Shown: one piece after another, positions 24,506 to 64,000 of the stretch
Position numbering within the stretch: position 1 is the stretch's first letter
How the letters are laid out: each line of letters begins with the position of its first letter
NCBI GenBank assembly: GCA_963796165.1
Contig: CAWCKP010000008.1
Span: forward strand, 144,463-208,462
Length of the DNA stretch: 64,000 nt
Origin: an uncultured Acidobacteriota bacterium
Lineage (GTDB): Bacteria; Acidobacteriota; Terriglobia; Acidiferrales; UBA7541
Direction: 5' to 3'
Notes under the pieces: model-generated
Database searches by the model: none
Told to the model about the DNA's origin: nothing
The model's input: only the letters and a program-made list of their open reading frames with translations
Position numbers and translations under genes: made by a program

Positions 24506-24514
24506 ACGCGGCCA

Positions 24515-26788: not shown

Positions 26789-26819
26789 GACGTAGCTGTT
26801 CTCATCCAGTGGCGCGCGA

Positions 26820-26848: not shown

Positions 26849-26858
26849 GCACGGGCCA

Positions 26859-29084: not shown

Positions 29085-29123
29085 GGCCTAGCTGTTCTGA
29101 TCCAGTGATCCAGTGGCGCACGA

Positions 29124-29152
29124 TTGCCTGCATCGAGACGCTGGCGTAGAAT
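29124..29152 (+). promoter_or_regulatory. sigma70-like promoter of kinase paralog 4
   Basis: TTGCCT, 17-nt spacer, TAGAAT. ATG at 29163, 10 nt after the -10 box. Confidence 0.5.
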
Positions 29153-29162
29153 GCACGGGCTA

Positions 29163-31382
29163 ATGGCTGATACCTCTCCCATCATCGGCCGCACCATCTC
29201 GCGTTACCGCATCCTGGAAAAGATCGGCGGCGGGGGCATGGGTGTGGTCTACAAAGCCGAGGACTTGAATCTCGGCCGCGTAATCGCCCTAAAGTTTCTT
29301 CCCAACGATGTCTCCGCGGATGCCACTGCGCTGGAGCGATTCCGCCGCGAAGCTCGCGCCGCATCGGCACTCAACCATCCCAGCATTTGCACCATTCATG
29401 AAATTGACGAACGCGACGGCCAATGGTTTATCGCCATGGAGTTTCTCGACGGCCTGACCCTGAAGCATCGCATCAGCGGCAAGCCGCTCCCGTTGGAGCT
29501 GCTACTCGACGTGGGCATCCAGATTTCCGACGCGCTGGATGCGGCGCACTCGGAAGGGATCATTCATCGCGACATCAAGCCCGCGAATATCTTCATCACC
29601 AAGCGCGGGGTGGTGAAGATCCTCGATTTTGGTTTGGCGAAAACGCTGGCGACGGCATCCCCGTTGATCTCAGCGACCGAGGATTTTGTTTCCCCCGAAC
29701 ATCTCACCAGTCCGGGTAGCACCCTGGGAACGGTGGCGTACATGTCGCCGGAACAGGCGCGGGCCCGCGAGTTGGATGCGCGCTCGGACATCTTCTCGTT
29801 CGGCACCGTGTTGTACGAGATGGCCACCGGCAGCTTGCCCTTCCGCGGCGAGAGTACCGCGGTGATTTTCGAAGCCATTCTCAGCCGAGCGCCAATTCCG
29901 GCAGTGCGTTTGAACCCGGAACTGCCGGCGAAGCTCGGAGAGATTATCGAGAAGGCGCTCGAGAAAGACCCCGGCCTGCGCTGCCAGACGGCTGCCGAAC
30001 TCCGCGCCGACCTCAAGCGCCTCGGTCGCGACATCGAATCCAGCCGTCTGCCCGGTGCTGAGAAGAGCGTTCCCGGTTCCGGGGCACACGTGGTGGCAGC
30101 CAAGCAGAAATCAGTCGCGGTGCTGTACTTCGAAAACCAGAGTGGCGCGAAAGAGGACGAATATTTCCGCGACGGGATTACTGAGGATATCGTCACCGAG
30201 CTTTCTAAGATCGCGAAACTGGAAATCTTTCCCCGCTCGGAGATGCTCGGATTCCGCGACAAGCCGGTCACCGCGCAACAGGTGGGTCAGCAGCTTGGCG
30301 CCACCTATGTGCTGGAAGGTTCCATCCGCCGCGCTGGTAACCGGGTGCGCATCACCGCCCAGCTGGTGGAAGCCGCTACGCGGCATTCCGTCTGGGCCGA
30401 GCGATACGACCGGCTACTAGAAGACGTCTTCGCCATCCAGGAGGAAATCGCGCGAAGTATCGCCCAGGCCCTGCGGATTACGCTGACGCCGCAAGAAGAA
30501 AAAACCATCGCGCGCAAGCCCACCGAAAACCCCCTGGCCTACGATTTTTATTTGCGTGGACGCAGCTACACGCGCCGCGAGAATATGGACTACGGCCTGC
30601 AGATGTTCGAACAAGCCATCCAGTTGGACCCCAATTTCGCGCTGGCCCACGCCGGGATTGCGCACCTGTGCGGGATCATTTACGAGCTTCGCGAACAGAA
30701 CCCCAAATGGATTGAACGCGGACTGGCAGCCTGCGACCGAGCCACCGCGCTGGCGCCCGACACACCGGAAGTGTTGGTAGCGCTCGCGCGCATCCGCTAT
30801 GCCCAGAAGAAATATGACGAAGCTGGGCTGCTGGCCCAACGGGCCATCGGGCGCAAACCCGACTGTGAGGGATCCTGGAGTATCCTCGGCCGGGCTTATT
30901 TCACCTCGGGTCGTTACGAAGAGGCTGCGGCGCTCGTCGAACGAGCGCTCGAAGCCAACGGGGACGACTATAATGCTTATGTCCCGTATTACGGGGCGAT
31001 GGACCGCCTGGGACGAAAGAAGGAATCCGAGCATATCCGCGAGCGGATGATCAGGGTCATCCGCCAACAACTCGAGCTGGTGCCGGAAGACGTGCGTGCC
31101 CGGATCTTGCTGGCTTCCCAACTCGCCTATTTGAAACAAGACGCTGACGAGAGCATTCGCCACCTCCAGACCGCCGTCGCCCTTCGCCCCAGCGATCCCA
31201 ACACCCTCTACAACGCCGCGTGCACCTACGGCATCCTTGGCAAAAAGACGGAAGCGCTCGAGGCGCTCAAGAAGGCCTTTGCGGCCGGACATGGCAATCG
31301 GGATTGGGCAGCGCAAGATCCCGATCTCGATCTTCTGCACGACGACCCTGAATTCCAGAAGTTAGTTGGCCGCAGCGGATAG
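29163..31382 (+). CDS. Ser/Thr protein kinase with central alpha/beta module and TPR repeats (paralog K4)
   Basis: Same architecture as K1-K3. Confidence 0.9.
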
Positions 31383-32647: not shown

Positions 32648-34459
32648 ATGCGATTGTCCAGTTTGATTCGAGCTGTTTTGACCGCCATCGTTGCGTTTAC
32701 CGTGTGCTGCGTTGGGTGCCCGTTGGCATCGGCGCAAAGTCAAGCCAAGGTGGATGCTGCTACCAAGAGCAAAGCGTGCCCGAGCGATGACAGCGGGTTG
32801 AAGTTATCCAGCGGTTTTTGCGCGACGGTATTTGCCGACGGTATTGGTCATGCCCGCCACCTGGTGGTCACGGCGGACGGAGTGGTTTACGTCAATACCT
32901 GGTCCGGCGACTACTACGATCACGACACGCCGCACGCCGGCGGGTTCCTGGTCGCGCTGAAAGACAGCACCGGCGCGGGAAAGGCCGATGTAAATGAACG
33001 CTTTGGCGAGACCGTGCAGAGCGGCGGCGCCGGCGGCACGGGCATCGCCCTGTATAAGGGGTCGGTATACGCGGAGATCAACGACCGAATCGTGCGATAT
33101 TCGCTGCCTGCCGGGTCGATCGTGCCGCTCGATCCTGCGGATACCGTCGTCTCCGGATTGCCGCTGGGCGGCGACCATCCGATGCATCCCTTCGCCATCA
33201 CCGAAGATGGATCGATGTACGTGGACGTCGCTACCGCGACTAATTCCTGCCAGCCGAAAAATCGGACGCCTGGGTCGATGGGCGCGAACCCGTGCACGGA
33301 ACTGGAGACGCGCGGCGGCATCTGGCGTTACGACGCCAACAAAACTGACCAAACATTTTCACCGGCGGAGCGATTTGCCACTGGGATACGCAATGCCGAA
33401 GGCTTTGGGATCGACACGGCTGGCCAGCGCATTTTTATAACGCAGCACGGACGCGACCAGCTTTATACCAATTGGCCTGCTTTTTTCAAACCGGAGCAGG
33501 AGGCAACGCTGCCGGCCGAAGAGATGATGCTGTTGAAACAGGGCGGCGACTACGGCTGGCCGGAGTGCTACTACGACGGGCCACGGCGGAAACTGGTTCT
33601 CGCGCCAGAGTACGGCGGCAACGGCGGGGTACGCGTGGGTGTTTGCGCCAGCAAGCTTGCACCGGTGGCGGCGTTTCCCGCGCATTGGGCGCCGAACGCA
33701 ATGGTGTTCTACGACAAGACACAATTTCCCGCGCGCTATCGCAAGGGCGTGTTTATCGCGTTCCACGGTTCATGGAATCGGGCGCCATATGCGCAAGGCG
33801 GCTACAACGTGGTCTATCAGCCGCTGGCCGGGGACCATGCATCCGGCAGCTGCGAAGTGTTTGCTGATGGCTTCGCGGGGGCGGTCAAGACGCCGGAGGG
33901 CGCGGTGCATCGTCCCAGCGGCCTGGCTGTTGGGCCGGATGGATCGCTCTACGTTTCTGACGATATTCGCGGACGGATCTACCGAATCACCTACATCGGC
34001 GGCGCCGGCTCGGACGGCGGCGCTGCGAAATTCACGGCGTGTCCGAGTCTGTCGGCCCCGGCCGGCAAAGCAGTGCAAGTGGCTGCCAAGCCGCCGGAAG
34101 GCACGAACCAGGATGCGGGTTCAGCCGCAACAGCGACACCGGCTCTTCGCGTTCCCCCCGGGGCTACGCGGACGATGGTTGCTCTTGGGAACAGCATTTA
34201 CCACGGCCAAGTGGCGGGAGCGGCGTGCGCCGGTTGCCATGGCGTGAGTGCTGGCGGCGGTCCGTTGGGGCCCAGTCTAACGGCCAACAAATGGTTATGG
34301 AGCGATGGCAGCTATCCCGGAATCGCGAAAACGATAACCCAGGGCGTGCTGCAGCCCAAGAAATATCGCAGCCCGATGCCGCCGATGGGCGGGTCGCAAC
34401 TCACGCACGAACAGGTATTGGCGTTGGCCGCGTACATCTGGGCGTTGAACCACCACTGA
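32648..34459 (+). CDS. PQQ-dependent sugar (sorbosone/glucose) dehydrogenase-like beta-propeller fused to a C-terminal cytochrome c domain, secreted
   Basis: Signal peptide. ITQHGRDQL and GSLYVSDDIRGRIYRI propeller motifs. Haem-binding CAGCHG near the C-terminus. Confidence 0.8.
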   Translation: MRLSSLIRAVLTAIVAFTVCCVGCPLASAQSQAKVDAATKSKACPSDDSGLKLSSGFCATVFADGIGHARHLVVTADGVVYVNTWSGDYYDHDTPHAGGFLVALKDSTGAGKADVNERFGETVQSGGAGGTGIALYKGSVYAEINDRIVRYSLPAGSIVPLDPADTVVSGLPLGGDHPMHPFAITEDGSMYVDVATATNSCQPKNRTPGSMGANPCTELETRGGIWRYDANKTDQTFSPAERFATGIRNAEGFGIDTAGQRIFITQHGRDQLYTNWPAFFKPEQEATLPAEEMMLLKQGGDYGWPECYYDGPRRKLVLAPEYGGNGGVRVGVCASKLAPVAAFPAHWAPNAMVFYDKTQFPARYRKGVFIAFHGSWNRAPYAQGGYNVVYQPLAGDHASGSCEVFADGFAGAVKTPEGAVHRPSGLAVGPDGSLYVSDDIRGRIYRITYIGGAGSDGGAAKFTACPSLSAPAGKAVQVAAKPPEGTNQDAGSAATATPALRVPPGATRTMVALGNSIYHGQVAGAACAGCHGVSAGGGPLGPSLTANKWLWSDGSYPGIAKTITQGVLQPKKYRSPMPPMGGSQLTHEQVLALAAYIWALNHH

Positions 34460-43101: not shown

Positions 43102-44615
43102 GGCGGTGTCAAGATTTTTGTGTAAACGGCCTTCGGTTTTTTCTTTTTGAGTCCTTTTTCGTTCCATTAAAACAACCCGTCGCCGGAGCTGTGGGAATGT
43201 GGGAATCTCGCGTCTTCTGCGAGATTTCCAAGGAGATGTGGAAAGCCTGGTGTTGGCTTTCCATAGCTCCGTCATTTCCATAGCTCTGTTTCACGAAATT
43301 TTCTCGCGCAAGGCTGGCGCTAACTGTCACGCGCGCTCCCCCGCCGGCATGCGGTCCGGCCAGAGAACGGTGAAGCGGTTCAGCGCGGCACACCAATCCT
43401 GTACCGGCCTCGTCCATCTTTTGGAGGCATTTTTCAACGCTAGGTATAACAGCTTCAGAGCCGCCTCCTCGTTCGGAAACGAACCCCGCATTTTGATGAT
43501 TTTACGCAGCGACATGTTCAGCGATTCCACCGTGTTGGTCGTGTAAATTACTTTCCGAATCTCGGCCGGATAGGCAAAAAACGGTGTAATCCGATCCCAG
43601 TGCCGGCGCCAGGTTTGGCTCACCACCGGGTACACCGCATCCCACTTTTCCGCAAACTCATCCAGTTGCACTTTCGCCTCCGAGGCCGTCGCCGCTTGAT
43701 AGATCTTCCGTAAGTCCGCTGCCACTTGCTTGCGCTGTTTCCAGTTCGTGTAGCTCAACGAGGCCCGTATCATGTGCACGATACAGGTTTGCACCTCGGC
43801 CTTTGGATACACCGATTCAATCACCTCCGGGAACCCCTTCAGCCCGTCCACGCAGGCGATGAAGATGTCTTTCACCCCGCGATTTTGCAACTCCGTCAGC
43901 ACCTGCAGCCAGAACTTCGCCCCTTCGTTCTGCGCCGCCCAGAGTCCCAGAACCTCCTTGTTGCCCTGCAGGTTCACCGCGATCGCCACGTGGATCGCTT
44001 GGTTCCGAATGTGTCCGCCATCGCGCACCTTCACCCGCAGCGCATCCATGTACAGGATCGGGTACACCTCATCCAAAGGCCGGTTCTGCCACGTCTTTAC
44101 TTCCTCCATCACCGCTTCGGTGACGTTGGAAACCAAGGTGGGCGAAACCTCTACCCCATAGATCTCTTTCAGATGCCCCTCGATTTCTCGCGTGGTCATC
44201 CCCCTCGAGTACATCGAAATGATCTTGTCGTCGAAACCGTCAAAGCGGGTCTGCCCTTTGCTCACAATGGCCGGCTCAAAGCTCCCGTTGCGATCCCGCG
44301 GCGTCTCCAATTCCATCTCCCCGAAATCGCCTTTCAGCTTCTTCTTGCTGGCTCCGTTTCTCGAGTTCCCGCTGTTGTAGCCCGCCGGATCATGCTTTTC
44401 GTAGCCGACGTGCTCCGTCAGCTCCGCATTCATCGCCCGCTCTAAAAGAGCCTTGGTGAGCTGCTTCAGCAGTCCGTTCTCTCCGATAATGTCTTCCGGC
44501 TTCTTGTAGCCCGCCAGCAGTTCATCAACTAGCTTTGGATCTATGGTCATCAGTTCTCCTTGTTTGAGTCTGCTCTATTCCCGACGACCGTTTACACAAT
44601 CTTTTTTACACCCTC
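43102..44615 (-). mobile_element. IS256-family insertion sequence with 8-bp target site duplication
   Basis: GTGGCACC occurs at 43094-43101 and 44616-44623. The terminal inverted repeats match at 21 of 30 positions, including a perfect TTGTGTAAACGG. An intact transposase lies inside. Confidence 0.85.
43327..44550 (-). CDS. IS256 family (Mutator-type) transposase
   Basis: 407 aa. LLKQLTKALLERAMNAELTEHVGY, RNGSFEPAIV, MYSRGMTTREI, YMDALRVKVR, DGLKGFPEVI, CIVHMIR, TTNTVESLN. Confidence 0.9.
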   Translation of the reverse strand: MTIDPKLVDELLAGYKKPEDIIGENGLLKQLTKALLERAMNAELTEHVGYEKHDPAGYNSGNSRNGASKKKLKGDFGEMELETPRDRNGSFEPAIVSKGQTRFDGFDDKIISMYSRGMTTREIEGHLKEIYGVEVSPTLVSNVTEAVMEEVKTWQNRPLDEVYPILYMDALRVKVRDGGHIRNQAIHVAIAVNLQGNKEVLGLWAAQNEGAKFWLQVLTELQNRGVKDIFIACVDGLKGFPEVIESVYPKAEVQTCIVHMIRASLSYTNWKQRKQVAADLRKIYQAATASEAKVQLDEFAEKWDAVYPVVSQTWRRHWDRITPFFAYPAEIRKVIYTTNTVESLNMSLRKIIKMRGSFPNEEAALKLLYLALKNASKRWTRPVQDWCAALNRFTVLWPDRMPAGERA

Positions 44616-51447: not shown

Positions 51448-52827
51448 TTGTCGCGCCGGGCGGGCGAGGGATTCGCGAGCAGCCGATCGAGAGGAACTGT
51501 GAAAAAGAAAGGTTCCAAGCTCCTGTGGTGCTTAGCCGTATTGGCTTTCATTCTGGTTTTCCTGATGGTGGTGCGCCAGCGGGTACGCGGAGATCAAAAC
51601 GCTCCCGCTATACCACCGTTCACCGACTACCGCGGCGAAGCTCCCGGCAACACTCATAAAATCACCGTGGCCGATTTACCTGCGCCCTACGCGTCGCAGG
51701 CCGCTATCAATTTCCCCAGCGTAGTCGATCAGCCCAAAGGTGCGTGGCCTAAAGTTCCTGCGGGATTCAAGGTGGAACGATTTGCCGAAGATCTGGAAAA
51801 TCCTCGCTTGATTCGCACCGCCCCCAATGGGGACCTCTTCCTGGCGGAAAGCGCCGCCGGCCGAGTGAAAGTATTTCGCGGCATCTCCAATAACGGGCGG
51901 CCCAGCAAGGAAGAAACGTTTGCCAGCGATTTGAATAAGCCCTTTGGCATTGCTTTCTATCCCCTGGGTAACGATCCGCAGTGGGTGTACGTCGCCAATA
52001 CCGATTCGGTGGTCCGTTTCGCTTACCACCAGGGGGACATGAAAGCCCGCGGGCCGGCGGAAAAAGTGGTGCCAGACCTGCCCGGCGGCGGCTTGCTCCC
52101 GGGCGGCGGGCACTGGACGCGGGACATCGCGTTTAGTCCCGACGGCCACAAAATGTTTGTCTCGGTCGGCTCACATTCCAATGTGGACGACGCCGACACC
52201 CACAAAGAAGAATTTCATCGCGCCGATATTCTGGAGTTCAATCCGGACGGCTCGGGCCTGCGCGTATTTGCCTACGGCATTCGAAATCCGGTAGGCATCG
52301 CGGTGAATCCGCAGACCGGCGAGCTGTGGTGCTCGACGAACGAGCGCGATAACCTCGGCGATAACCTGGTCCCGGACTACATCACCCACGTGCAGGATGG
52401 CGGTTTCTATGGATGGCCGTGGTGGTACATGGGCCCGCACCAGGATCCGCGCCACGAAGGCAAGCATCCTGAGCTGAAGGACAAAGTGATCACACCCGAC
52501 GTGATCCTGCAGCCGCACAACGCCTCACTCGAGATGACGTTCTACGACGGCAAACGATTCCCGGCGGAATATTCAGGAGACATTTTCGCCGCCGAGCATG
52601 GATCGTGGAACAAAGCGGTGCGCACCGGCTACGAGGTCATTCGCGTCCCGCTGCACGGGCAAGGGCACGCCACCGGGGAGTATCAGGATTTCCTCACTGG
52701 GTTCGTCACCTCCGATGGGAATGTGTGGGGGCGTCCGGTGGGAGTGGCGGTCGCCAGCGACGGTTCGCTGTTGGTGAGCGACGACGGTTCGAACTCCATC
52801 TGGCGAGTGAGCTACGTAGGAAACTAG
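51448..52827 (+). CDS. PQQ-dependent sugar dehydrogenase (sorbosone dehydrogenase family)
   Basis: N-terminal TM/signal anchor. Propeller motifs (PFGIAFYP, GIRNPVGIAVNP, GFYGWPW, GSLLVSDDGSNSIWRV). The start is uncertain (TTG 51448 or GTG 51499). Confidence 0.8.
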   Translation: MSRRAGEGFASSRSRGTVKKKGSKLLWCLAVLAFILVFLMVVRQRVRGDQNAPAIPPFTDYRGEAPGNTHKITVADLPAPYASQAAINFPSVVDQPKGAWPKVPAGFKVERFAEDLENPRLIRTAPNGDLFLAESAAGRVKVFRGISNNGRPSKEETFASDLNKPFGIAFYPLGNDPQWVYVANTDSVVRFAYHQGDMKARGPAEKVVPDLPGGGLLPGGGHWTRDIAFSPDGHKMFVSVGSHSNVDDADTHKEEFHRADILEFNPDGSGLRVFAYGIRNPVGIAVNPQTGELWCSTNERDNLGDNLVPDYITHVQDGGFYGWPWWYMGPHQDPRHEGKHPELKDKVITPDVILQPHNASLEMTFYDGKRFPAEYSGDIFAAEHGSWNKAVRTGYEVIRVPLHGQGHATGEYQDFLTGFVTSDGNVWGRPVGVAVASDGSLLVSDDGSNSIWRVSYVGN

Positions 52828-52952: not shown

Positions 52953-54056
52953 TTACGCCATCGCCGCGGACAATCCCTGAATCTGAATCAGCCCGGCGAG
53001 CGGCTTGTTTTTGCGGGCCTTCAGGTTTTCCGACATTATCCCGGTGCGCACCAGCGACTTCTCGCAATCCTGGGTGGACGGCCCGCGCATGTTGCCTTCC
53101 ATGTACGCCAGTCCCGGGCAGCGTGTGCAAGTGCCCATGTTCGAGCACTTCGAGCAACTGGTGAGATCGCGCACGGTGATCGATCGCACTTCGTTCATCT
53201 CCGGCGAGTAGCGCCAGATATCCAGAAATTTCTTTTCCCGCACGTTTCCGGTCGGCAGCGGAAACTGCACGCAGGGATAAACGTCGCCGTAGGGTGAAAC
53301 GTACGCCGCGGTGTGGCCCGCGCTGCATGGCAGGGAATCCAGCGCGTCGGCGTCCGGCGCTGCGGGAATCGAGCAGAATTCCTCGACGTTACCCACCAGC
53401 TCCGGAGTGTGAAACAACTTGTCCAGCTCGGCGTGACCGATATTCAAATTCAGAACTTCGCGGTTGCCATCCATCATCGGGGTGATGGTGGGATCGATGG
53501 TCACGTAACAACCCAGTTCGTTGCCCAGCGCACGCACGGCCGCCTGGTCCTGAATATTCTGGATCATCAAGACGTTGGCGATGATCACTTTGATTCCGTA
53601 GGATTTCAGAAAACGAATCGCGTGTACCGACCGTTCGAGCGACCCTGGAATCTTGGTGATCTCGTCGTGGATTTCCGGGCGGTGCGAATAGATGCTGATC
53701 TGCACCGAATCCACGCCCAGAGCGCGAATACGCTCGGCTTCCTTCTCGCGGATCAGGATGGCGTTGGTTTTCAGCTTCACGCAGAACATCAGCGCGCGGG
53801 CATGCTCGAGGATTTCGAAGAAGTCCTTGCGCATCAGAATTTCGCCGCCGCTCAAGGTAAGAAAGAAAACGCCGGCCGCCGCCATTTCATCGAGCAGGTC
53901 TTTGATTTCCTGGGTATTCATCTCGCCGTGGTCTTCGTGGTCGAGATAGCAATGCACGCAGCGCTCGTTGCAGCGATAGGTGAGGTCGAGCTGCACGCTC
54001 AGGGGGATTCCTAGCTTCAGGGCACGCTGGCCCATTTCCTCCATTAAGGCGCTCAT
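52953..54056 (-). CDS. radical SAM / SPASM domain protein (peptide- or protein-modifying maturase type)
   Basis: LTYRCNERCVHCY (CX3CX2C). C-terminal Cys-rich SPASM region CSAGHTAAYVSPYGDVYPC...CSKCSNMGTCTRCPG. Confidence 0.85.
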   Translation of the reverse strand: MSALMEEMGQRALKLGIPLSVQLDLTYRCNERCVHCYLDHEDHGEMNTQEIKDLLDEMAAAGVFFLTLSGGEILMRKDFFEILEHARALMFCVKLKTNAILIREKEAERIRALGVDSVQISIYSHRPEIHDEITKIPGSLERSVHAIRFLKSYGIKVIIANVLMIQNIQDQAAVRALGNELGCYVTIDPTITPMMDGNREVLNLNIGHAELDKLFHTPELVGNVEEFCSIPAAPDADALDSLPCSAGHTAAYVSPYGDVYPCVQFPLPTGNVREKKFLDIWRYSPEMNEVRSITVRDLTSCSKCSNMGTCTRCPGLAYMEGNMRGPSTQDCEKSLVRTGIMSENLKARKNKPLAGLIQIQGLSAAMA

Positions 54057-54412
54057 GGAGTCTCCTTGGCCGGGCCGCCGGTCTGGGTGATCGCGATCTG
54101 CGTGATCGCCGCTTGCGTGATCGGCTGATCCGAAACCAGCAGCAATCCGTGGCTGGTAAGCTCGGCCACCAGATCCTCCGCGTCGCTCAGGGCCACGCTG
54201 GGAGCTACTTCAAAGGCCGCGCACACTTTCTGGTCCACGATCTGATCGAGCGGCGTCGAACCGTCCGCCGCTTCCCAGATCGCGGTGGCCACTTCGTTCA
54301 GGGTAAACAGGGTAGAATCCTTCGCCGACATAATCATCATCTCTCCGCCCACCGCGCGAGCGGCGATCTGCGTACTTCGCGCGACGTAACGCTTCTGCGC
54401 TCCTGCGTCCAT
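54053..54412 (-). CDS. PqqD family protein (RiPP recognition element-like chaperone)
   Basis: ...IAARAVGGEMMIMSAKDSTLFTLNEVATAIWEAADGSTPLDQIV... is the typical PqqD pattern. Its stop overlaps the rSAM start by 4 nt. Confidence 0.7.
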   Translation of the reverse strand: MDAGAQKRYVARSTQIAARAVGGEMMIMSAKDSTLFTLNEVATAIWEAADGSTPLDQIVDQKVCAAFEVAPSVALSDAEDLVAELTSHGLLLVSDQPITQAAITQIAITQTGGPAKETP

Positions 54413-54460
54413 TGAGCCTTTTACTGCGCACTTCGATTCACATATTTCTAAGACGATGCT

Positions 54461-55297
54461 TTAACCCCGCCCAGCTCTATCTTGCTGCACCATTTCCCAC
54501 ACCCGCGCATCCGGCAGAAAGGTGAGCTGCCGCACCGGCGCCTTGCGCACGAACTCCGCCGCCGTTTCGAACACTAGTTTAACAAGCTCGGGGTCCCGCG
54601 CGAAGAACAGAATACTCTCCAGGAGTGCTCGGATGGCAACTTGTTCGGGCACTGTTTCGATCTGGTTCACTGGACCCTGCTTTAGTAAGTACAGTACGCC
54701 CACGGGTACTTTTACGTTTTCTCCCGGAGTATTCAGCTCGCCAACAAAGGGAGTTCCGTAAGCAAAATACCCCTCCGGAAGCTTACGGACGTAGGAAACC
54801 TCATCGGTAAGCAGCGTAGCGCTGGGCGGCGCCAAGCGGGCCATGGTGGTCTTGCCGGCCCCGGAGACGCCCGCAAAGAGCACCGCGCGGCCGCCTACCG
54901 AGGCGCTGGATGCGTGCAGCAAGAACCCGCCTTCCCGAGCCAGCAGCAAGGTATGCAGGATGCGCATCACCGCGTCGATGGAATAGGGGTTAGCGGTCTG
55001 GCGGATGCGCCCGCACCCCGCCGCCGGATTCCATTCCGCACGAAAATCGCCGCGGGAGAGCGACCATTTCCCCGCATCGAACACCACTTCGACGTCCTGA
55101 TCCTGATATTCCATGCCCGGCGGTTGCAAATCGATGTCGAACTCAAACCGTGGCTCGCTGGTGGTGGTGACGAACCCGGCATAGCGCTTCCGCAACAGGG
55201 CAATGAACTCCGGGTCGGCAACCCGCAGGCGCACCGGCAGCCCGCCGATTTCGATGATGACGCCAGGTACTTCGCTGGGGGTGCTTACGGTTGCCAT
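54461..55297 (-). CDS. HPr kinase-related P-loop protein (HprK-like kinase as found in RiPP clusters)
   Basis: LLHASSASVGGRAVLFAGVSGAGKTTMA P-loop context typical of the HprK C-terminal-domain-like family. Confidence 0.65.
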   Translation of the reverse strand: MATVSTPSEVPGVIIEIGGLPVRLRVADPEFIALLRKRYAGFVTTTSEPRFEFDIDLQPPGMEYQDQDVEVVFDAGKWSLSRGDFRAEWNPAAGCGRIRQTANPYSIDAVMRILHTLLLAREGGFLLHASSASVGGRAVLFAGVSGAGKTTMARLAPPSATLLTDEVSYVRKLPEGYFAYGTPFVGELNTPGENVKVPVGVLYLLKQGPVNQIETVPEQVAIRALLESILFFARDPELVKLVFETAAEFVRKAPVRQLTFLPDARVWEMVQQDRAGRG

Positions 55298-55878
55298 AGC
55301 ACCGCTTCTTCCGACCACTTTTCATTGGCCTGCCGGTAGGCCCGCGCCGGAAGGGTGAACCGCAGAAACAGGGAGGTGGCCCGGTCGGAGCGGCGCAGCG
55401 CCAGCGCGAGCAAGATGCTCTCGAACCAACTCAATCGTGGACCCGGCGTGAATCGCAGCTCGCCATCGCCGCGGGTGGTGCGTCGGCTCACCGATTCCAC
55501 CACCGCAATCAAATTCTCGGGAAGCACCGCGGGGTCGTCGCAAACCGCGCGATCCCCTCGGGTGATCCAGCGCCGCGCGCCCGCTTCTTGCAGCACCGTT
55601 ACCACTCGATGGGTGATCAGCCGCGGTCCGGAGGAGTAAACGATAAGTTGTCCTACGGAAATTTCTTCAGGGGCGGCCCGGCGGACGCTAAGAATATCGC
55701 CGGGACGAAGCGTGGGAGCCATGCTCGACCCTAAAACCCTGAGCCGCGCCGCGCCAAACTTCTGAACCAGCTCGGCGGTCATTTCCACTTTCAGCGCTGC
55801 GCACTCTTGGGTGTCCCGAGGCATCGCTGGCATCGGCGCGGGACCCGGTGCCGCAGCCTTGCTCTCCGCCGCGGTCAT
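55285..55878 (-). CDS. S24/S26-fold serine peptidase (signal-peptidase/LexA-like), apparently soluble
   Basis: LGSSMAPTLRPGDIL (nucleophile Ser box), LITHRVV (His where bacterial SPase I has Lys), TRGDRAVCDDP. No N-terminal TM helix. Confidence 0.6.
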   Translation of the reverse strand: MTAAESKAAAPGPAPMPAMPRDTQECAALKVEMTAELVQKFGAARLRVLGSSMAPTLRPGDILSVRRAAPEEISVGQLIVYSSGPRLITHRVVTVLQEAGARRWITRGDRAVCDDPAVLPENLIAVVESVSRRTTRGDGELRFTPGPRLSWFESILLALALRRSDRATSLFLRFTLPARAYRQANEKWSEEAVLWQP

Positions 55879-56018
55879 CGCTCACCTCTGGCTTCGCTGG
55901 TGCTTCGGGGGGCGCCGGGGCAACGCCCGGCGCGAAAGAAAACGCTCGAAGCGGACCGCCCGTTTTTGCTACAGCTTGCGGGCCGCTTCGAGCGTCGACT
56001 TCGGTTATTCATCCAGCG

Positions 56019-58211
56019 TTAGTTTAGACCATTCTGCGTGGCCTTCACAGCGCAGCCTTGGTCGCCGGTGCAGACTCCGTTGGTGGTTCCCACCGCGAGC
56101 GGTGTGAAATATACGCTCGAACCGGAAGTGGAGCTTGCCGAAACCACGTTATCGATAACGATCCCGCTGGTCCCGCCCGGTTCGCCCAGCGACGCTGCCA
56201 CTGCCGTCGGGAACGCGTCGGTTGCGCTGTCGCCGAGGGTTACGTCGATCGACATCAGGCACCCGCCCGAGCTGTTCGTCTGGCCCTGGCCGGTCAGATC
56301 GCAGTTGGCGCCGTTGCCGCCCGCGGTCACTCCGAAGAACATCAGGTCCATTCCGTTGTTGTAGACCTCGGTGAGCGGTGAGCATTCCGAGTCCGGCGTC
56401 GTTCCTACCTGCAACTGATTGGTATCGCTGCCGATGAAGTCGCCATAGGCGTCGAACGTTATCCGCCGGATCGTCGGCAAATCCATGGTGGGCTGCTTGC
56501 CGCAGTAGTACAGATGGCCCTGGGCCATATCACCCGAGTAGTAGTTGTTGTCGAAGTCGCCAGAATGCATCTGCGCGCCGGCCGCTCCCACTCCCAGTGA
56601 GGTAGGATCGGTCAGCGAAACAGTGGCCTGAATGATCTCCGCGTTTCCGGCACCGTTGTTGCCGACGAACACCAGCACCATCTCGGTATTGGAATCGACG
56701 ATCGGCGGATCCGGAATCGGGTTCCCGCCAGTGGGTATCACGCAGTCGTGCGCGACCGGGGTGGTGCTGGTGGTCACGTAGCTGACACAGCCCTTGGAGT
56801 CGGCCATAATGACGTTTCCGCTTACGTTGTCGTACACCGGCCCTGTCAGTTTCGCGCCGCTATCCACGGTGATACTCCACGTCTTGGACGGCGAAGTACC
56901 CAGAAACACGCCAGTGTATTTATAGAGCGTACCGTTGTCGTCGCCCACATAGATCACGTCATCCCAATAATCGGCGAACGGGGCTGAGTTGGAAGATGAA
57001 TGGCTACCCATCGGCAGCACTAGCTGGCAATTGGTGCACGTGCTCCAGGTGGAGCTGGTCGCGGTCGTCGGGGTTGCCGGCGCGGTGATTGAACCGGACC
57101 CAGCCGCCCATTTCAGAATGTGCAGGTTAGACCCGGTGGAGGTGCTCACCACAAACGCGATCTTGGTTCCATCCATGGACAGCGCCACCGAACTGGCGGT
57201 CGTTCCGCCGGTCTCGCTGGAGGTCGATACGCCGTAAGCGAAATAGGTGGAAGGCCCGGAGCCGCAAGTGGAATAGAGATTGTTCAGGGCCACGAGGTTC
57301 GCTGCCGCTGTGCTTGTTCCGCCGTTGCCGCCGATGAACTTCGGAAAGAACCACGTGAAGTTTTCCGAGTTCGAGCAGGAACCGAAGAAGAACGGGAAGC
57401 AATCGATCGCGCCGCTCGGTCCCACCGTGGAGTTGTTGCCTGCGGAGCCCGCGACGGTATCCGTAACGATTACCCAGTTGCCGAAGAATACCTGCGCGGT
57501 GTAGGTGAAGATCCCGGAGGTGGCCGCGTTGACCGCCGTCACGAAGTTGCTGGCTGCCTGAGAGGGGCTGCTGCCCTGTTGGAAATGCAAACTACTCACC
57601 GCGGTGGTGTTGGAGATGGCCGTAAAGGTTGTACCATTGATTTGGATGGTGGAACCCACGGCTGGTATGTTCCAAAAGAAACCGTAGTCGATGGCTTTGG
57701 TCGAATAGCCAGTCGCGCCCGTTCCCGACGCGGTATTGGTGTTGTAGGCCACGAAGTCGCTGGTGCAATTCGGCGTTGCGTTGACGTTGAAGCTATACTT
57801 GGCAGGGAACTGTTCGTTCCCGACGCTCGCGCTCGCTCCCAGGGCCGCCGTCCAGTCGCGGTGCATCGGACCGCTCTCCGGTTCCGCCTGATGATCTCCC
57901 CATCTCGCCGGTAGGGTCGGGTTCACATAGCGTGGGCCCGAGTCGCCTGGGTCCGAGAGGGGTTTCATGGCGGTCATCGCACGCCGGTAGTATTGCTGCA
58001 TGAACCGTGGGTCCTGCTGGAGCCGCCGGGACTGCTCGGCGCTCTTCGGTGCAGAAAAGACCAGGTTCTTATGGCTCCAGTCGGTGACCAATGGGACCCG
58101 GGCTCGGGTTTCAGTCTGAGCTACGTCAGGGGTCTGGGCCATCAGGGTGAGCCCTAGTGTCAAAGTTGACGCGATTCCTAGGGCCACTTTCAGGAAGCTT
58201 TTGTGTGTCAT
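56019..58211 (-). CDS. large secreted beta-propeller-like protein (paralog P1)
   Basis: Within ORF 56019..58361. The start MTHKSFLKVALGIASTLTLGLTLMAQ is a signal peptide with AAGGGA upstream. N- and C-terminal regions are homologous to the gene at 59890..64000. Confidence 0.75.
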   Translation of the reverse strand: MTHKSFLKVALGIASTLTLGLTLMAQTPDVAQTETRARVPLVTDWSHKNLVFSAPKSAEQSRRLQQDPRFMQQYYRRAMTAMKPLSDPGDSGPRYVNPTLPARWGDHQAEPESGPMHRDWTAALGASASVGNEQFPAKYSFNVNATPNCTSDFVAYNTNTASGTGATGYSTKAIDYGFFWNIPAVGSTIQINGTTFTAISNTTAVSSLHFQQGSSPSQAASNFVTAVNAATSGIFTYTAQVFFGNWVIVTDTVAGSAGNNSTVGPSGAIDCFPFFFGSCSNSENFTWFFPKFIGGNGGTSTAAANLVALNNLYSTCGSGPSTYFAYGVSTSSETGGTTASSVALSMDGTKIAFVVSTSTGSNLHILKWAAGSGSITAPATPTTATSSTWSTCTNCQLVLPMGSHSSSNSAPFADYWDDVIYVGDDNGTLYKYTGVFLGTSPSKTWSITVDSGAKLTGPVYDNVSGNVIMADSKGCVSYVTTSTTPVAHDCVIPTGGNPIPDPPIVDSNTEMVLVFVGNNGAGNAEIIQATVSLTDPTSLGVGAAGAQMHSGDFDNNYYSGDMAQGHLYYCGKQPTMDLPTIRRITFDAYGDFIGSDTNQLQVGTTPDSECSPLTEVYNNGMDLMFFGVTAGGNGANCDLTGQGQTNSSGGCLMSIDVTLGDSATDAFPTAVAASLGEPGGTSGIVIDNVVSASSTSGSSVYFTPLAVGTTNGVCTGDQGCAVKATQNGLN

Positions 58212-58506
58212 ATTCATATTCCCTTTGCCTCGCCAAGAAAGATTTGGGGCCCGGTGTTCCGGGTCGATACGGTTATACCGGAGTGCCGCAAGATGGCCCA
58301 ATCTAATCGGATTTGGAACATGAAGTAGGGGGACGTACAGTACTTTGCCCATGATTCGCAAAGTGAGAATCGTTTGTAAATATATGAATATAGGCAGCTT
58401 GAACTTTAGCTCTTTGCGGACCCATCGAGTTTCGAGGCGGAAAACTGGAGTGAGTCAGGCGGCTCATGTATCAGGACCTATAGGCGCAGGAGTACGCTGC
58501 TAGACT

Positions 58507-58950
58507 CGCCGTTGTGGCACTGCGACTCCTCGCGGTGCGGCCCCAAACCACCGAAAACTCCCTGGTCTCAAGACACGAGCACAATGTCTGGGGGGGTGCT
58601 ACGACAGGTTCTGTTCGAAAAATGGCCCGAGTGCCGTGTTGAGAACCGAGTTTGGTGTTTGTTTTGAGGGGGATGCAATCTCTAAACGCGGCACGTAGGG
58701 TTCCCGGATCTGCCCGGTGGCCGCTTCGTGGCTCGAAGCTCGATTTGAACTCGATTGGGCGCGGAGTGATTGGAGTACGGAGCATCGTTCGGAGTTCCAC
58801 CGGACACCCTTGCAGATGGCAAGGTGAAAAAACATCCGCTGGAATACGGCCTTTCTAACGTTTTGGAGCGGAGATTGTGTTCGTTGTTTTGATTTGGGGA
58901 ATTTTGTAATGCTGGCACGCACCGCGAGGAGTCGCTGTGCCACAACGGCG
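58507..58950. repeat. inverted pair of 33-bp GTTGTGGCAC-type repeats bracketing about 380 bp
   Basis: CGCCGTTGTGGCACTGCGACTCCTCGCGGTGCG at 58507-58539. The reverse complement of 58918-58950 is CGCCGTTGTGGCACAGCGACTCCTCGCGGTGCG, one mismatch. Confidence 0.75.
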
Positions 58951-59813
58951 GTGTCACAACGGCGCCTTTAAACAAATCACACACGCGAAAATTCACAGGC
59001 AAAAATTCTCACGCTAAAAAAAACGCTCACCGCAACAGACACACGCGTAGCGTGCGTCCGTTAACTGCATCTCAAATTTTTTTGTGCGAGTGTGGATGCG
59101 TGCAGCGCATTCCTCACGAGACGCGTGCAGCCCTTACGATGCTTTGCGATGGAACTTGCAGGACGACTGTGTCGCGCTGATTTTTCCGCAGTGCAACGCC
59201 ATGGTCTCGAAGACACGCTCATGACGTACTGCGGGTTTGTGGTATGGTTTTTTCCCTCCCGCTCCTGAGGGCTTGGCGGCGTTTGAAAAATTTGTGCTCA
59301 ATTTGACCTCATTTCAACCGTGAGATGCATTCCCTAGACGAAGGTGGCAAAAAATACCTCTGGCCATCCGCGCCAGGGCCGCCTGCGGATATTTACCCCC
59401 ACAGTGTACCATTACGTAGCGCGATTTTCACCGATGTTTGTAACGCAAATGTAAATATTCCAGAACCGCCCCTTCCCGTCCCCCGACAGCCCTTAACGCT
59501 AGGTCCAACCTAGCCTTACGCCGAACCGCCCGCCCGGCCCGCGCTCCTAGACCCACCGTCTCAGCCCCTACATGCTGTATGCCCCAGGGGGACGCCTAGA
59601 GTGCTCCCAGAGGCCCTCCAGGCACTTTCAGGGGCCCTAGCCCTAGGGCCAAAGCCCGAAGGAGACAAACGTCGGGCCGTAGAAGCGAAGTCAAAACACC
59701 CACGCTTCCCAAAATCGGGGAAGAATGGGGCACCCAAAAAACATGGAAGCGTGAATCAAAACCTAAAGGCAAACACGTCGAACCGTAGAACCTAGCCCAA
59801 TTCACGCTACCAA

Positions 59814-59851
59814 TAAAAAAAGCAGCCTGGATGAGGTTCCATCCAGGCTGC
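59814..59851 (-). terminator. rho-independent terminator of the giant repeat-protein gene
   Basis: Minus strand reads GCAGCCTGGATG-gaacctc-ATCCAGGCTGC followed by TTTTTTT. Confidence 0.8.
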
Positions 59852-59889
59852 CGGTTTTTGCTGCCATCCGCCCCTCCAGGCGGTTGCTT

Positions 59890-62800
59890 TTACTGCAGAC
59901 CTGCCTGCGTCAGCTTCACGGCGCAGTATTTTCCGACGGCGCAAACGGGGTCTGCGGAAGTGCCGACCGCCTCGGTAGTGAAGTACATGCTCGAGGCCTG
60001 AGCGGCGGGGCTGATGTTGTCCACCACGATTCCGCTGGTGCCATCCTGCGCGGGCGGGTAGGTATTTACGGAGTGTTCGATGCCCTTGGTCATCACGTAC
60101 GAGGTGGTGACGCTGTAGCCCTGACCCACCGCCGCTCCGAATGCTCCGGTTCCGCCGGCGATGCGCCCGACGCCGAACAGCATGTAATCGGTGCCGTCGG
60201 GGCCGCCGTCCGAACCCGGCTGGAAGATTTCGGTGATCGGTGCGCACTCAGCGTAATCGGACGAAGCCAAGGTGGAGAGGCTCAGCCCGAGGGTTGCATC
60301 GACCGCGTTGTTCATGACGCCGGCGTTGAAAGTGATCGCGAACATCGACGGCGCAGCGGTCGTTGAGTTGTCGCAGACGAACAAGTGGCCGGTGCCCGTG
60401 CCGTTGTAGTAGTTATTGTCGAACGCCGGCGCATGCACGTTGACTACGCTCGCCCCAGTAGTGGCTGGGTTCGTTCCGCAGAAGGCGCCAGTGCCGGTGC
60501 TGAGGTTATTGACGCGGTTGCCGAACAACGTTGTCCCAGCAGCGCCGGTGGAGGCTTGGGTCACCACCGCACGGTTGGAAGAGCTCACCGACGTTGCCGC
60601 GTTCTGGGTGTAAGCATAGAGCGCGTTAATCGAATCGTCGATGATCACCGGATCGGTGATGCCTCCGGATTCCACCAGACCGGAACCGCAGCTTCCGGTT
60701 CCTTCGCCAACCGCCATCGATGAAGCCGCGCCCGAGCCCAGCGGATACGGTACTGCGTACACTTTACCGTCCGCCGCGCCTACGAACACGTTACCCGATT
60801 GCTCGTCCTCAACTGGGCCGGTCAGCATGGTCTGGCCCGAAGTGGTGCCCACCTGCGTGCTGGTGACTACCGGTGCGGCGGTTCCGCCAGTGGTGGCGGT
60901 TCCCACGAACACCGGAGAGACCGAGTAGAGCACGCCCTGGTCGTCTCCGAAGTACAGCACGTCGTTGTCGTAGTCGTAGTAGGGTGACGAGAGAGTGATG
61001 TGGTTGCTGCCGATCGCCACGTTGACCATGCACGACCCGGAAGCTGCGCAACCCGCTGTTGGCGGGTCCAGGGTTACCGTCGGTGCCGAAACGTAGCCGG
61101 TGCCGTTGCTGGTCAGCGTGATCGAAGTCACCGCGCCGCCCGAGATGTTTGCGGTTGCGGTCGCGCCGGAAGCGCTTGCACCGCCGCCGTTGATGTACAC
61201 GTTCGGAACCGTGGTGTAGCCGCTTCCGCCGTAAACCAGGTTGATCGCGGATAGCTGATCCAGGGTGCTTGCCGTGGCTGCCGCACCAGTTCCACCGCCG
61301 CCGGTGCCGAAAGTAACCGTCGGAGTGCCGCTGTAGCCGCTGCCGCCATTGGTTAGGTTAACCGAAGCAACCGAGCCGCTGATGGTTGCAGTTGCGGTCG
61401 CGCCCGATCCGCCGGTGCCACTGTTACCGAAGGTAACCGTCGGCGCCGAAGTGTAGCCCGAGCCCGCGCTGGTGACCGTCACCGAGCTGACCACGCCGCC
61501 AAGGTTCGCGGTTGCTGCTGCACCGCCGGTACCGCTGATGGTCACCGCCGGGACTGCTGTGTAGTTGTTGCCTGCGTTGGTAACGGTGATCGAGGAAACG
61601 TACTTCGATGTGACCGCTGTCGCTGCCGCGCCGGAACCGCCAGTGCCGGTGTTGTTGAAAGTGATGGTTGGCGCGGTAGTGTAGACGCCGGGGGTGGTAA
61701 CCGTCACGCTGCCGACGACTCCGGTCAGATTAGCCGTTGCCGCTGCACCGCTGCCTGCGCCGCCGCCGGTGAATGCCACCGTCGGAGCTGAGGTGTAGCC
61801 AGTACCGACCGCTGTCTCATTGACTCCAGTAACCGATCCGGAGAACGTTACGGTGGCTGCCGCGCCGGTGCCGGTGCTGCTGGTGAATGAAACCGTGGGA
61901 GCCGCGGTATAGGCCCCGCCGCTGGTCAGGGTTACGCTCTGCACCGTTCCGCTGATCTTCGCGGTGGCCGTAGCTTGGGTGGTTGCGCCGCCGCCGGTGA
62001 TGGTCACCGTCGGGTTGGCAGTGTAGCCGCTGCCGCCACTCGTTAGAGTGAGCGAGCCCACCACCTGAGAAGTGGTTGTGCTCACGGTATAAACCGCCGC
62101 GGTGTTTTGCACATAGTAGCCGCCGATGGTCATAACGATGCTGCCGCCGGTCAACGTATACGAACCGCCATTGGTGATGCTCACGCTACTGACACAAGAG
62201 TAAAGACCACCCTCCGCAGTGGTGCACGGCGGCTTCGCTGTCGCGGTGGCCACCGTGCCGGTTGCCTGGGTGTTCTGGACGCAACCCGTTGCGCTGCAGG
62301 AGAACGTCACAGTCGGACTGTAAAACCAGTAGGCGCCGGTGTTGGTAAAGGTCACGCTGCTAACCGAGTAGACCGTGGCCAGGTTCGCGGTGGCCGTAGC
62401 GGTGGTCCCAGATGTGGGGGCCGAAATCGTTACCGTCGGGGCCGAGGTATATCCCGCGCCTGCGGTGGCCAGCGTCAATGTACTCACTGGACCCGCGATC
62501 GTTGCCGTTGCCGCTGCTCCGCCGGAGCCGCTGAAGACCACCGTCGGCGCGGTCTGGTATCCGCTGCCTGCCGCGGTGACGTTCACGGCCTGTACCGAAC
62601 CGCTAAAAGTTGCCGTCGCGGTTGCGCCGCTGCCGCCGCCACCAGTGACGCTAACCGTGGGAGCGGAAGTGTAGCCGGATCCGCCACTGGTCAAACTGTA
62701 GGATCCAACGCCCTGGCTCAGATTGGCGGTAGCTGCTCCGCCGCCGGTTCCGGAGTAAACCACCGTCGGTGCTGAGGTGTAGCCGGTGCCGCCGTTGGTT

Positions 62801-64000
62801 ACGTTAATCGAAGTGACGCCGGTGGCGAGCACGGCGGTGCCGGTTGCGGTGGTTCCGCCGTTACCCGGTGCCGCTACGCTTACCGTGGGGGTGGTCGTGT
62901 AGCCCGATCCGCCTGCGGTTACGGTGTAAGAAGTGACGCCATTGGTGACGTTGGCCGTGCCGGTGGCGACAGTGCCGCCCTGGCCGGTGGGGTTGCTAAA
63001 CGTGACCGTGGGCGCCGAAGCATACCCGCTGCCCTGCGCGCTGACGTTTACGTTCGCTACACCTGCATTCAGAATGGAAGTAGCGGTGGCGCCAGTCCCG
63101 TTGCCACCGCTAATCGTTACCGTCGGCGCGGTAGTGTATCCGCTGCCGCCGTTGGTTAGGGTGATGCTCGAGACCGTGTCTGAAACGGTAGCCGATGTGC
63201 CGCGGCATCCGCGGAAAGCGTGGAAGGAGCCACAGCGTGTACCGCGTCGCCGTTGCTGGCGCCGTCGCCCGCGTTCCAGCTCAAAATGTGCAAGTAGGTG
63301 GTCGCGCCGCCGCTTTCCAGAAAGGCTACCTTCGTGCCATCCTCAGAGAGCACCGGAGAAGTGGTGATCTTCCCGCCCGAGGCAGTGGTCGTGTTGTACG
63401 ACCAATAGACGATCGGCCCGGTCCCGGGGCATATCCCGTCCGCTACTCCGCCCCCGTTGACGCCGGTGTACAGATTGTCCAGCGCCACCAGGTTCCCTTG
63501 TCCGCCGGTCACGCCCGCCACATCCAGGCCGTAGACCACGAAGTCAGGGAACCCGTATTCGGGCGTCCCGGTGGTTCCGGTGCAGTTCGCAGTGGTCACC
63601 GGGGCATTGATGTCGAAAGTGAATTTCGCCGGGTACATTCCCGGGGCCACGAAGCCAGCGCCCAACGAGAACGACCAGTCGATGTGGGCGGGGTTCGCCG
63701 GCTGCTGCCCGCGATCCTCACCGAGGAAGCCCCCGGCGAGCCGCACGTCCCTGCCGATCCCATTCGAGGAAGGACCGCCGACGCCCACCGAGGCCGCCGC
63801 ACGGGTGTTGCTATGCAGCTTCCTCGAGTAGATATAGCGCTTGTCGTTGGGCTTGGCCGCCTCTTCGTCGGGAGTGCGGTCCTTCGAGTAGATCATGTGG
63901 GTGTAGCTCCAATCCACTGGCAGAGACACCCGAGTGTGCCCAGCATCGGGGGTAGTCTGCGCGATAGCCGCCCCAGAGCCTATCAGGGCCGCAACAGCGA
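59890..64000 (-). CDS. giant secreted beta-strand-repeat / beta-propeller-like protein (paralog P2). The 5' end lies beyond the window and there is one frame change near 63200
   Basis: ORF 63156..63929 (open to the window end, reading ...AVAALIGSGAAIAQT signal-peptide-like) is homologous to the P1 N-terminus. ORF 59890..62832 and its open upstream extension to about 63240 hold about 20 GGSGYTSAPTVT-type repeats. The C-terminal ~400 aa are homologous to P1. Confidence 0.75.

Follow-up and report, generated by a model that had tools for sequence, protein, structure and literature searches.

The window analysed here is a 64,000-nucleotide stretch of contig CAWCKP010000008.1 from an uncultured member of the Acidobacteriota. 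Between positions 52953 and 64000 it carries, all on the minus strand, the genes for two related proteins, P1 and P2, a small peptide gene lying between them and an enzyme operon. The operon encodes a serine peptidase, a ScmC-like relative of HPr kinase, a PqqD-family protein and a radical S-adenosylmethionine (SAM)/SPASM enzyme. The reading that we favour, at a probability of roughly 0.7, is that the two-Cys tail in which both P1 and P2 end is a structural element, that the 55 amino acid peptide is the substrate of the operon, and that the P1 family provides an extracytoplasmic partner of the matured peptide. The original prediction had put forward the tail itself as the candidate substrate or recognition element of the enzymes, and had overlooked the peptide gene. 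The genes of the locus are as follows.

52953–54056, minus strand: radical SAM/SPASM enzyme (Pfam Radical_SAM, E = 5.8e-24; SPASM, E = 5.6e-12)
54053–54412, minus strand: PqqD-family protein, the recognition element in pathways for peptides that are made on ribosomes and modified after translation (RiPP pathways) (Pfam PqqD, E = 4e-14, 53 bits versus a cut-off of 23.4)
54461–55318, minus strand: ScmC-like P-loop protein, HPr kinase-related, a putative peptide kinase (weak HprK-related matches)
55285–55878, minus strand: S24/S26-type serine peptidase, archaeal/SipW-like signal peptidase I (TIGR02228, 57.6 bits versus a cut-off of 51.85; Pfam Peptidase_S24 match)
56019–58211, minus strand: P1, 730 amino acids from MTHKSF, with signal peptide, DWSHKNLVFS motif and predicted beta-propeller-type fold
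59134–59301, minus strand: precursor-peptide gene, 55 amino acids from a TTG start, MSTNFSNAAKPSGAGGKKPYHKPAVRHERVFETMALHCGKISATQSSCKFHRKAS; an open reading frame (ORF) in the 1.5-kb gap between P2 and P1, preceded by a GAGG Shine-Dalgarno sequence
59890–63195, minus strand: remainder of P2, comprising repeats and the ~400 amino acid C-terminal domain common to P1, stop codon included
63198–64000, minus strand: N-terminal part of P2, with the end of a signal peptide, DWSYTHMIYS, and the NLVALDNLYT and LHILSW blocks

The four enzyme genes are those that the original prediction had described. The translation of the radical SAM gene shows CNERCVHC and a C-terminal Cys cluster, CSKCSNMGTCTRC; a CxxxCxxC motif with a SPASM domain and an adjoining PqqD gene are both present, as in RiPP maturation. 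The best NCBIfam matches of the PqqD protein are to lasso and GeoRSP PqqD chaperones, and those of the radical SAM enzyme include the sactipeptide maturases StsB, AlbA and SkfB, all below their cut-offs. Close homologs of the ScmC-like protein carry a precomputed match to PF27840 (ScmC); more than 6,000 homologs were found, and the P-loop GxSGAGKTT is invariant in ScmC proteins. No transmembrane-grade hydrophobic segment was detected in any of 74 orthologs of the peptidase, so that this enzyme, lacking a membrane anchor, is likely to be the leader peptidase and most likely acts in the cytoplasm. The idea of a SipW-like peptidase dedicated to removing the signal peptide of P1 was considered and rejected, as none of the 74 orthologs has a transmembrane segment and the peptidase accompanies the peptide where P1 is absent.

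For comparative analysis, 80 operon loci (referred to by L numbers, as are the other loci below) were gathered from species-representative genomes by probing with a ScmC alignment; the label is Acidobacteriota or a sublineage of it in all cases except two. A homologous peptide ORF was found by tblastn in 66 of the 80 loci, nearly always directly upstream of the peptidase gene. A search with a hidden Markov model (HMM) raised this to 70 by recovering a further intact copy and three that are frameshifted. Of the ten loci without a peptide, at least three lack the upstream flank. HMM search and inspection of small ORFs (~8800–9700; full upstream flanks) revealed no recognisable peptide in L015, L016, L019, L022, L033, L038, L041 and L076, and only L038 and L041 among these eight have a P1-family gene; the precursor of these loci, if any, is different or placed elsewhere. 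The peptide gene is conserved in L001, a close relative of the window. Frameshifted peptide genes occur in the otherwise intact operons of L013 (~9339), L028 (9181–9543) and L071 (2030–2464), and sequencing error is likely for these since many of the metagenome-assembled genomes are long-read assemblies.

The 65 distinct peptide sequences conform to the consensus KKPYxKPxFRxExVFExxALxCGKxxxTxxxCxxxRKxS over a span mostly fixed at 38 amino acids. No variation is seen in the Y, P, E and F residues, in AL and CGK, or in the second Cys and terminal Ser, and the core has a C-x9-C arrangement; the terminal Ser was demanded in selecting these 65 sequences, and the unfiltered copies without frameshift also all end in Ser. 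Comparison of the window gene with three close relatives gave 4/6/15, 5/5/12 and 3/3/16 differences at codon positions 1/2/3, and this excess at the third position indicates purifying selection on the reading frame. A public protein collection holds 59 homologs of 51–93 amino acids, all unnamed or 'hypothetical', and three versions of the peptide matched no model in Pfam or NCBIfam. A small gene encoding a conserved leader and a Cys-containing core thus lies beside the enzymes, and the 55 amino acid peptide is likely to be the true substrate of the operon. Flanking sequences of the gene are also conserved: within 59034–59556 of the window, ~255 nucleotides on the 5' side and ~100 on the 3' side are ~81% conserved with L001, and the rest of the adjoining intergenic gap shows little similarity. 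These flanks may be regulatory sequences.

The original prediction had suggested examining whether the P1/P2 family co-occurs with the operon, and the outcome was positive from every direction of search. Searched with an HMM of the P1 family in windows of up to 20 kb, 51 of the 80 operon loci showed a family gene within 10 kb (37 of the 54 with full flanks). The same strand as the operon is used by 44 of these 51 genes, 32 upstream and 12 downstream; the remaining seven are on the other strand or elsewhere. Upstream copies end within ~800 bp of the peptide gene in 29 of 32 cases, usually at 5–200 bp, and downstream copies start within ~250 bp of the end of the radical SAM gene in 10 of 12. Of the 44 same-strand copies, just three are more than ~800 bp from the peptide gene or the radical SAM end, which rules out random scatter over the loci. 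Conversely, 80 metagenome loci were fetched with P1-family motifs from a 17-sequence alignment, and 53 of these contain the peptide and/or the enzymes (15 of the 24 whose flanks reach 1.5 kb or more on each side); the other 27 include many contigs that end at the P1 gene. In the three contexts anchored on the peptide (L163, L165 and L167), a P1-family gene is found beside the operon every time. The strength of the linkage in both directions supports the view that the P1/P2 family and the operon are functionally linked, and the linkage is seen over loci whose ScmC proteins are only ~50–60% identical. What the co-occurrence supports is a link, not specifically a role of the tail as substrate, and the association is frequent but not obligatory.

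Gene arrangement draws P1 and the peptide together more closely. L039 (4287–9082) has the order P1–peptide–P1–peptide–operon and L152 (2–3752) the order P1–peptide–P1, and such repeated modules suggest cognate pairs. In L095, L101, L114 and L153 a P1-family gene and a peptide gene are present, and no peptidase, ScmC, PqqD or radical SAM gene is found in the available flank. The usual order elsewhere is P1–peptide–peptidase–ScmC–PqqD–radical SAM. The window order, P2–peptide–P1–enzymes, is common to its close relatives L001 and L084–L086 and is a variant in which P1 separates the peptide gene from that of the peptidase. P1 is upstream of the peptidase gene, with 140 bp between its end and the start of that gene. 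Some loci also hold further genes of note: L101 has, after its P1–peptide pair, a truncated ORF that is 2,799 codons long or more, L167 a second PqqD gene (6560–6964) upstream of the peptide, and L165 a nucleotidyltransferase gene (NTP_transf_5) and an ABC transporter gene after the radical SAM gene (10104–13156). The combination of nucleotidyltransferase and ABC transporter is familiar from kinase-containing lasso clusters.

The paralogy of P1 and P2 asserted by the original prediction is borne out at both ends of the proteins. The N-terminal regions match by blastp with E = 5e-16 and 1e-13, and residues 358–729 of P1 match ~416 amino acids of P2 with E = 1e-26 and 30% identity; similarity is far above chance and the two are paralogs. 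All motif pairs that had been quoted were found in both proteins, and both do end in C-x5-C-A-V-K-x-T-Q-x-G-L-[NQ]. The description of the two as giant suits P2, at ~1,390 amino acids, but not the 730 residues of P1. Scans of P1 and of both parts of P2 against Pfam and NCBIfam returned no usable match, and no meaningful Pfam domain was found in the P1 homologs. More than 200 homologs of P1 were retrieved by a word-indexed search; an exhaustive scan gave 1,708 clusters at 50% identity with E ≤ 1e-3, 1,200 at 1e-10 and 452 at 1e-30. Those homologs that are named belong to Acidiferrales, Acidiferrum or Sulfotelmatobacter, and as far as sampled the family is restricted to the Acidobacteriota. P1 represents a large, unannotated family of secreted proteins with a predicted propeller fold and ~1,200–1,700 clusters.

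The tails of the two proteins are encoded at the following positions.

56022–56072, minus strand: P1 C-terminal tail, C714-TGDQG-C720-AVKATQNGLN, with residues 718–726 predicted as a beta strand and conservation across the family
59893–59943, minus strand: P2 C-terminal tail, CAVGKYCAVKLTQAGLQ (...C-AVGKY-C-AVKLTQAGLQ), with C-x5-C

An apparent signal peptide, MTHKSFLKVALGIASTLTLGLTLMAQ, can be read off the translation of P1. Near the mature N-terminus is a DW[ST]HxH[LV][IV]FS motif that is conserved family-wide (P1 residues 44–53, window ~58053–58082); D44 and W45 are nearly invariant, and the motif could be a metal or ligand site. P1 holds 14 Cys residues, of which ten are conserved as five co-varying pairs (149/316, 392/395, 570/610, 637/651 and 714/720) and four, at 271, 279, 475 and 490, are poorly conserved. 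The signal peptide and the pairing of conserved Cys residues point to a Sec-secreted, disulfide-bonded protein. Nearly all family members end in ...GGTSGIxxDN...YF...C-x(n)-GC-A-[VI]-[KQ]-[AL]-[ST]-Q-x-x-L-[NQ]. The tail Cys residues are both present in 87 members, both absent in seven and single in one; their spacing ranges from x4 to x15, and in 96 of 108 Cys-bearing tails a distance of 10 residues separates the last of them from the C-terminus. Paired conservation with variable spacing is the pattern of a disulfide-bonded secreted protein. The terminal motif is kept with no Cys at all in 21 of 139 diverse representatives, and the operon-linked members share no invariant Cys pair in a fixed motif, since those adjacent to the operon in L049, L073 and L074 have a tail lacking both.

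An AlphaFold2 model of P1, computed from a 95-sequence alignment, has a predicted local distance difference test (pLDDT) score of 85.7 and a predicted TM-score (pTM) of 0.83. It is a confident model, mostly beta in structure, and residues 718–726 form a strand. Foldseek searches with this model returned more than 1,000 matches to generic beta-propellers (WD40 proteins, BamB, LRP6 and the propellers of prolyl oligopeptidases) with low TM-scores; against the PDB only generic propellers were matched and no enzyme-specific hit was found. Most of the P1-family chain is thus predicted to fold as a beta-propeller, of which the tail, [AG]-[VI]-[KQ]-[AL]-[ST]-Q-x-x-L-[NQ]-COOH, would be the last strand throughout the family. 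The short variable loop before this strand is most likely clamped by a disulfide after export. The original prediction had allowed for a structural disulfide as the alternative to its own proposal, and the co-variation of the Cys residues, their varying spacing and the predicted strand at 718–726 all favour it. By itself, the tail is an ordinary structural feature.

A pathway can be proposed by analogy with characterized families. What PqqD-like B1 proteins bind is the leader peptide rather than the core (PMC5067487), and the PqqD protein of the operon would likewise bind the KKPYxKPxFRxExVFE leader of the peptide. The radical SAM/SPASM enzyme would then cross-link the xCGKxxxTxxxCxxxRKxS core, probably through its two invariant Cys residues. 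In paeninodin-type systems PadeK phosphorylates a strictly conserved C-terminal Ser of the precursor (PMC9266682). The combination of an invariant terminal Ser with an HPr-kinase-like ScmC protein suggests a similar phosphorylation in the present case, in which the ScmC protein would modify the C-terminal Ser as PadeK does. The soluble S24/S26 peptidase would cut the leader off, plausibly after the invariant Ala of the ...ET(M/S)AL segment (...ETMAL in the window, with cleavage between A and L). Outside the cytoplasm, the secreted P1 propeller would act with the exported mature peptide as its binding partner, receptor or carrier subunit. A more specific form of this proposal, framed on the quinohemoprotein amine dehydrogenase described below, is that the cross-linked, Ser-phosphorylated and leader-free peptide may be a dedicated ligand or small subunit of the P1 propeller, the two together making a two-component extracellular protein; this must be regarded as speculative and is rather unlikely in such a precise form.

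The proposal that the P1/P2 tail is modified in the cytoplasm before export, as substrate or recognition element of the radical SAM/SPASM and PqqD proteins, is not without precedent. Enzymes of this kind do act on full-length proteins, as with anSME on sulfatases and QhpD on QhpC. The strong two-way linkage of family and operon is in keeping with it, and the tail is the best-conserved short motif of the family and contains Cys. The proposal nevertheless appears very improbable. The operon has a dedicated, leader-bearing precursor of its own, which is better conserved than the association with P1, and P1 itself has no leader-like segment for PqqD to bind. Profile comparison with hhalign showed no similarity of the peptide to the P1-family tails (probability 0.2%) or to the whole family (0.1%). 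The Cys pair is missing from family members that adjoin the operon, its spacing varies, and its residues come and go together like disulfide partners in what is predicted to be an integral strand. The sulfatase-type C/S-x-P-x-R motif is absent from P1 and P2, and no fusion of P1 and peptide was found among 379 proteins. It is on these grounds that the tail is read as the last strand of the fold, preceded by a disulfide-clamped loop. Mimicry between tail and peptide core, which have 'ATQ' in common, was also considered and rejected, given the negative hhalign result and the lack of conservation of the Q among the peptides.

A serious rival concerns the nature of the link. Pure co-regulation, or shared history, would leave P1 as an independent secreted enzyme, adhesin or binding protein, controlled for example by a peptide signal and making no contact with the peptide. 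This is unlikely on balance, yet several observations favour it: P1 varies in its position relative to the operon, the window copy carries a separate terminator and possibly a separate promoter, no P1-family gene lies within 10 kb in 29 of the 80 operon loci, and L002 holds a P1/P2-like pair with no operon. On the other side, 41 of the 44 same-strand P1 genes sit within ~800 bp of the peptide gene or the radical SAM end and are not spread over the 20-kb loci, P1–peptide modules are duplicated as units (L039 and L152) and also occur with no enzymes nearby (L095, L101 and L114), and the association persists as the ScmC proteins diverge. The P1 family might instead serve the peptide pathway outside the cytoplasm as an export or processing scaffold or as an immunity protein. 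The neighbourhood linkage and the secretion of P1 would suit such a role, and its Foldseek matches include the propellers of prolyl oligopeptidase, PCY1 and GmPOPB; these matches are however generic, with TM-scores of 0.24–0.27, and there is no catalytic domain. In many of the operon loci ABC exporters are present and a P1-family gene is not, and genomes contain extra P1 paralogs (P2, L002), which is unusual for a component of a pathway. We consider this role improbable.

Returning to the favoured combination of a structural tail, a peptide substrate and a P1 family that acts as extracytoplasmic partner, several observations weigh against it. All four steps of the pathway are drawn from knowledge of the families, and the modification chemistry, the cleavage site and the role of the kinase are analogies. 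That the P1 family is probably the partner of the matured peptide is argued entirely from gene neighbourhood, and in the P1-free operon loci counted above ABC exporter genes are often present instead. The NCBIfam matches of the ScmC-like, PqqD and radical SAM proteins all fall under their curated cut-offs. The peptide has no signal peptide and no transporter was seen in the window; ABC exporters neighbour the operon in ~29 other loci. In the model of P1, the last three residues have pLDDT values below 50. Finally, terminator-like hairpins part P2, P1 and the enzyme genes of the window from one another. The candidate control signals are as follows.

55934–55996, minus strand: terminator-like hairpin and, after it, UUUUCUUU, in the P1–peptidase gap (-40.6 kcal/mol, z = -3.3, U-run)
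58351–58380, minus strand: sigma-70-like promoter match upstream of P1 (9 of 12 positions; weak evidence)
59821–59852, minus strand: intrinsic-terminator-like hairpin directly 3' of P2 (14-pair stem and T-run)

P1 possibly has a promoter of its own; sigma-70-like sites in the region, the match upstream of P1 included, are no commoner than in shuffled sequence. A scan of the intergenic regions against Rfam returned only sub-threshold noise.

The enzyme set was compared with known systems. In the SynChlorMet (SCM) cassette (TIGR04248–TIGR04251, PF27840), as in the window operon, a ScmC-type P-loop protein stands beside a PqqD-family protein and radical SAM/SPASM enzymes. SynChlorMet however has two radical SAM genes (ScmE and ScmF) in place of the single one found here, and the window proteins score well below its equivalog cut-offs (27 versus 125 bits for ScmC, 20 versus 100 for ScmD, 106 versus 400 for ScmE and 57 versus 400 for ScmF). 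An S24/S26 peptidase, a precursor family that can be identified and a linked propeller family are further features that set the present system apart, and its hosts are Acidobacteriota. The enzyme set is a variant of the ScmC/PqqD/radical SAM-SPASM type that lies outside SynChlorMet proper.

Paeninodin-type lasso clusters (PadeA, B1 and PadeK) resemble the window in having a PqqD-like protein, an HPr-kinase-related protein and a precursor that ends in Ser; PadeK is reportedly HPr-kinase-like. Lasso leaders carry a YxxPx[FVL]-type motif, and the leader of the present peptide has a YxxPx[F/V/L] segment resembling it. Unlike these clusters, the window has a radical SAM/SPASM enzyme and an S24/S26 peptidase, and its kinase activity is presumed by analogy; neither a lasso cyclase nor a B2 protease was found at 52953–64000 or in the related loci examined. 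Sactipeptide and ranthipeptide (SCIFF-type) systems similarly direct a radical SAM/SPASM enzyme with a recognition element at a short, Cys-containing precursor. A kinase-like protein, an S24/S26 peptidase and a linked propeller family are atypical of them, and no model for the precursor family exists in Pfam or NCBIfam. The anSME–sulfatase pairing shares the placement of a radical SAM/SPASM gene near that of a secreted protein, but differs in the C/S-x-P-x-R motif that P1 and P2 lack and in the separate leader-bearing peptide that appears to be the substrate here.

A parallel in logic is quinohemoprotein amine dehydrogenase, in which QhpD cross-links QhpC, the QhpE peptidase cuts the leader and the product joins the QhpB beta-propeller subunit. 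Here too there are a small Cys-containing peptide, a radical SAM/SPASM enzyme, a probable leader peptidase and a co-encoded secreted protein with a predicted propeller fold. Unlike that system, the operon has no gene for a cytochrome subunit or for QhpG, no Trp is conserved in the core of the 65 peptides, and the peptidase is of another family. PqqD is here a separate protein, whose match to TIGR03906, the sole one to that model, is 16 bits versus a cut-off of 453, and P1, which gave no Pfam or NCBIfam match, therefore has none to a QhpB model. The components are not homologous to those of quinohemoprotein amine dehydrogenase, and the window departs from it in every feature tested. The literature searched contains no account of this acidobacterial system, its precursor or the link to a propeller family.

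P2 differs from P1 in two further features.

61107–63192, minus strand: tandem-repeat insert of P2, in units of ~38 amino acids (...GGSGYTSAPTVTF...GGGGSGATATA...), not present in P1
63195–63198, minus strand: frameshift site interrupting P2, where the L086 ortholog aligns in frame -3 up to residue 317 and in frame -2 from residue 318

The insert contains 15 regular matches to a GYTSAPTV-type motif, spaced mostly 36–41 amino acids apart, and gave no match in Pfam; it is this run of repeats, lacking in P1, that accounts for the length of P2. P2 had been placed from 59890 to beyond 64000. The extent holds, as the start of the gene lies past the window end at 64000, but the frame is broken near 63196. 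L085 and L086 each have the P2 ortholog as a single ORF, of ~1,416–1,427 codons from stop to stop, and residues 59–317 of the L086 ortholog align by tblastn to the N-terminal part of P2 in frame -3. Intact orthologs and the switch of frame together indicate one frameshift in the window copy, which may be a true mutation, making P2 a pseudogene, or a long-read assembly error. The P2 ortholog in L001 likewise seems to be split over several frames.

Several other genes of the window were noted. At 21224–31382 on the plus strand are four consecutive paralogs of ~750 amino acids with a Ser/Thr protein kinase domain and TPR repeats, the last three spaced ~30–40 bp apart; similar kinase–TPR genes occur near some operon loci, for example at 15421–18405 of L053. 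A Mutator-family transposase gene (43327–44550, minus strand; Pfam E = 2.8e-128) lies at a distance of ~8 kb from the operon. On the plus strand, 32648–34459 and 51448–52827 encode two glucose/sorbosone-dehydrogenase-like (GSDH) propeller proteins; one of them has a cytochrome c domain fused at its C-terminal end and the other is convergent with the radical SAM gene.

Relative to the libraries and literature searched, three elements are new: a precursor family belonging to an acidobacterial ScmC/PqqD/radical SAM operon that is very abundant, an unannotated family of secreted, predicted propellers, and a tight neighbourhood link between propeller and peptide that is visible from either side. 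The Acidobacteriota are dominant in many soils and hard to culture. A defined peptide, an enzyme set and a candidate partner make this a testable system. If the peptide does prove to be a ligand or subunit of the propeller, it would be a new case in which maturation of a ribosomal peptide serves a protein partner and does not yield a free antibiotic. Such a peptide and propeller system would be widespread in soil Acidobacteriota, with a peptide family, a propeller family and a chemistry all unlike those of quinohemoprotein amine dehydrogenase.

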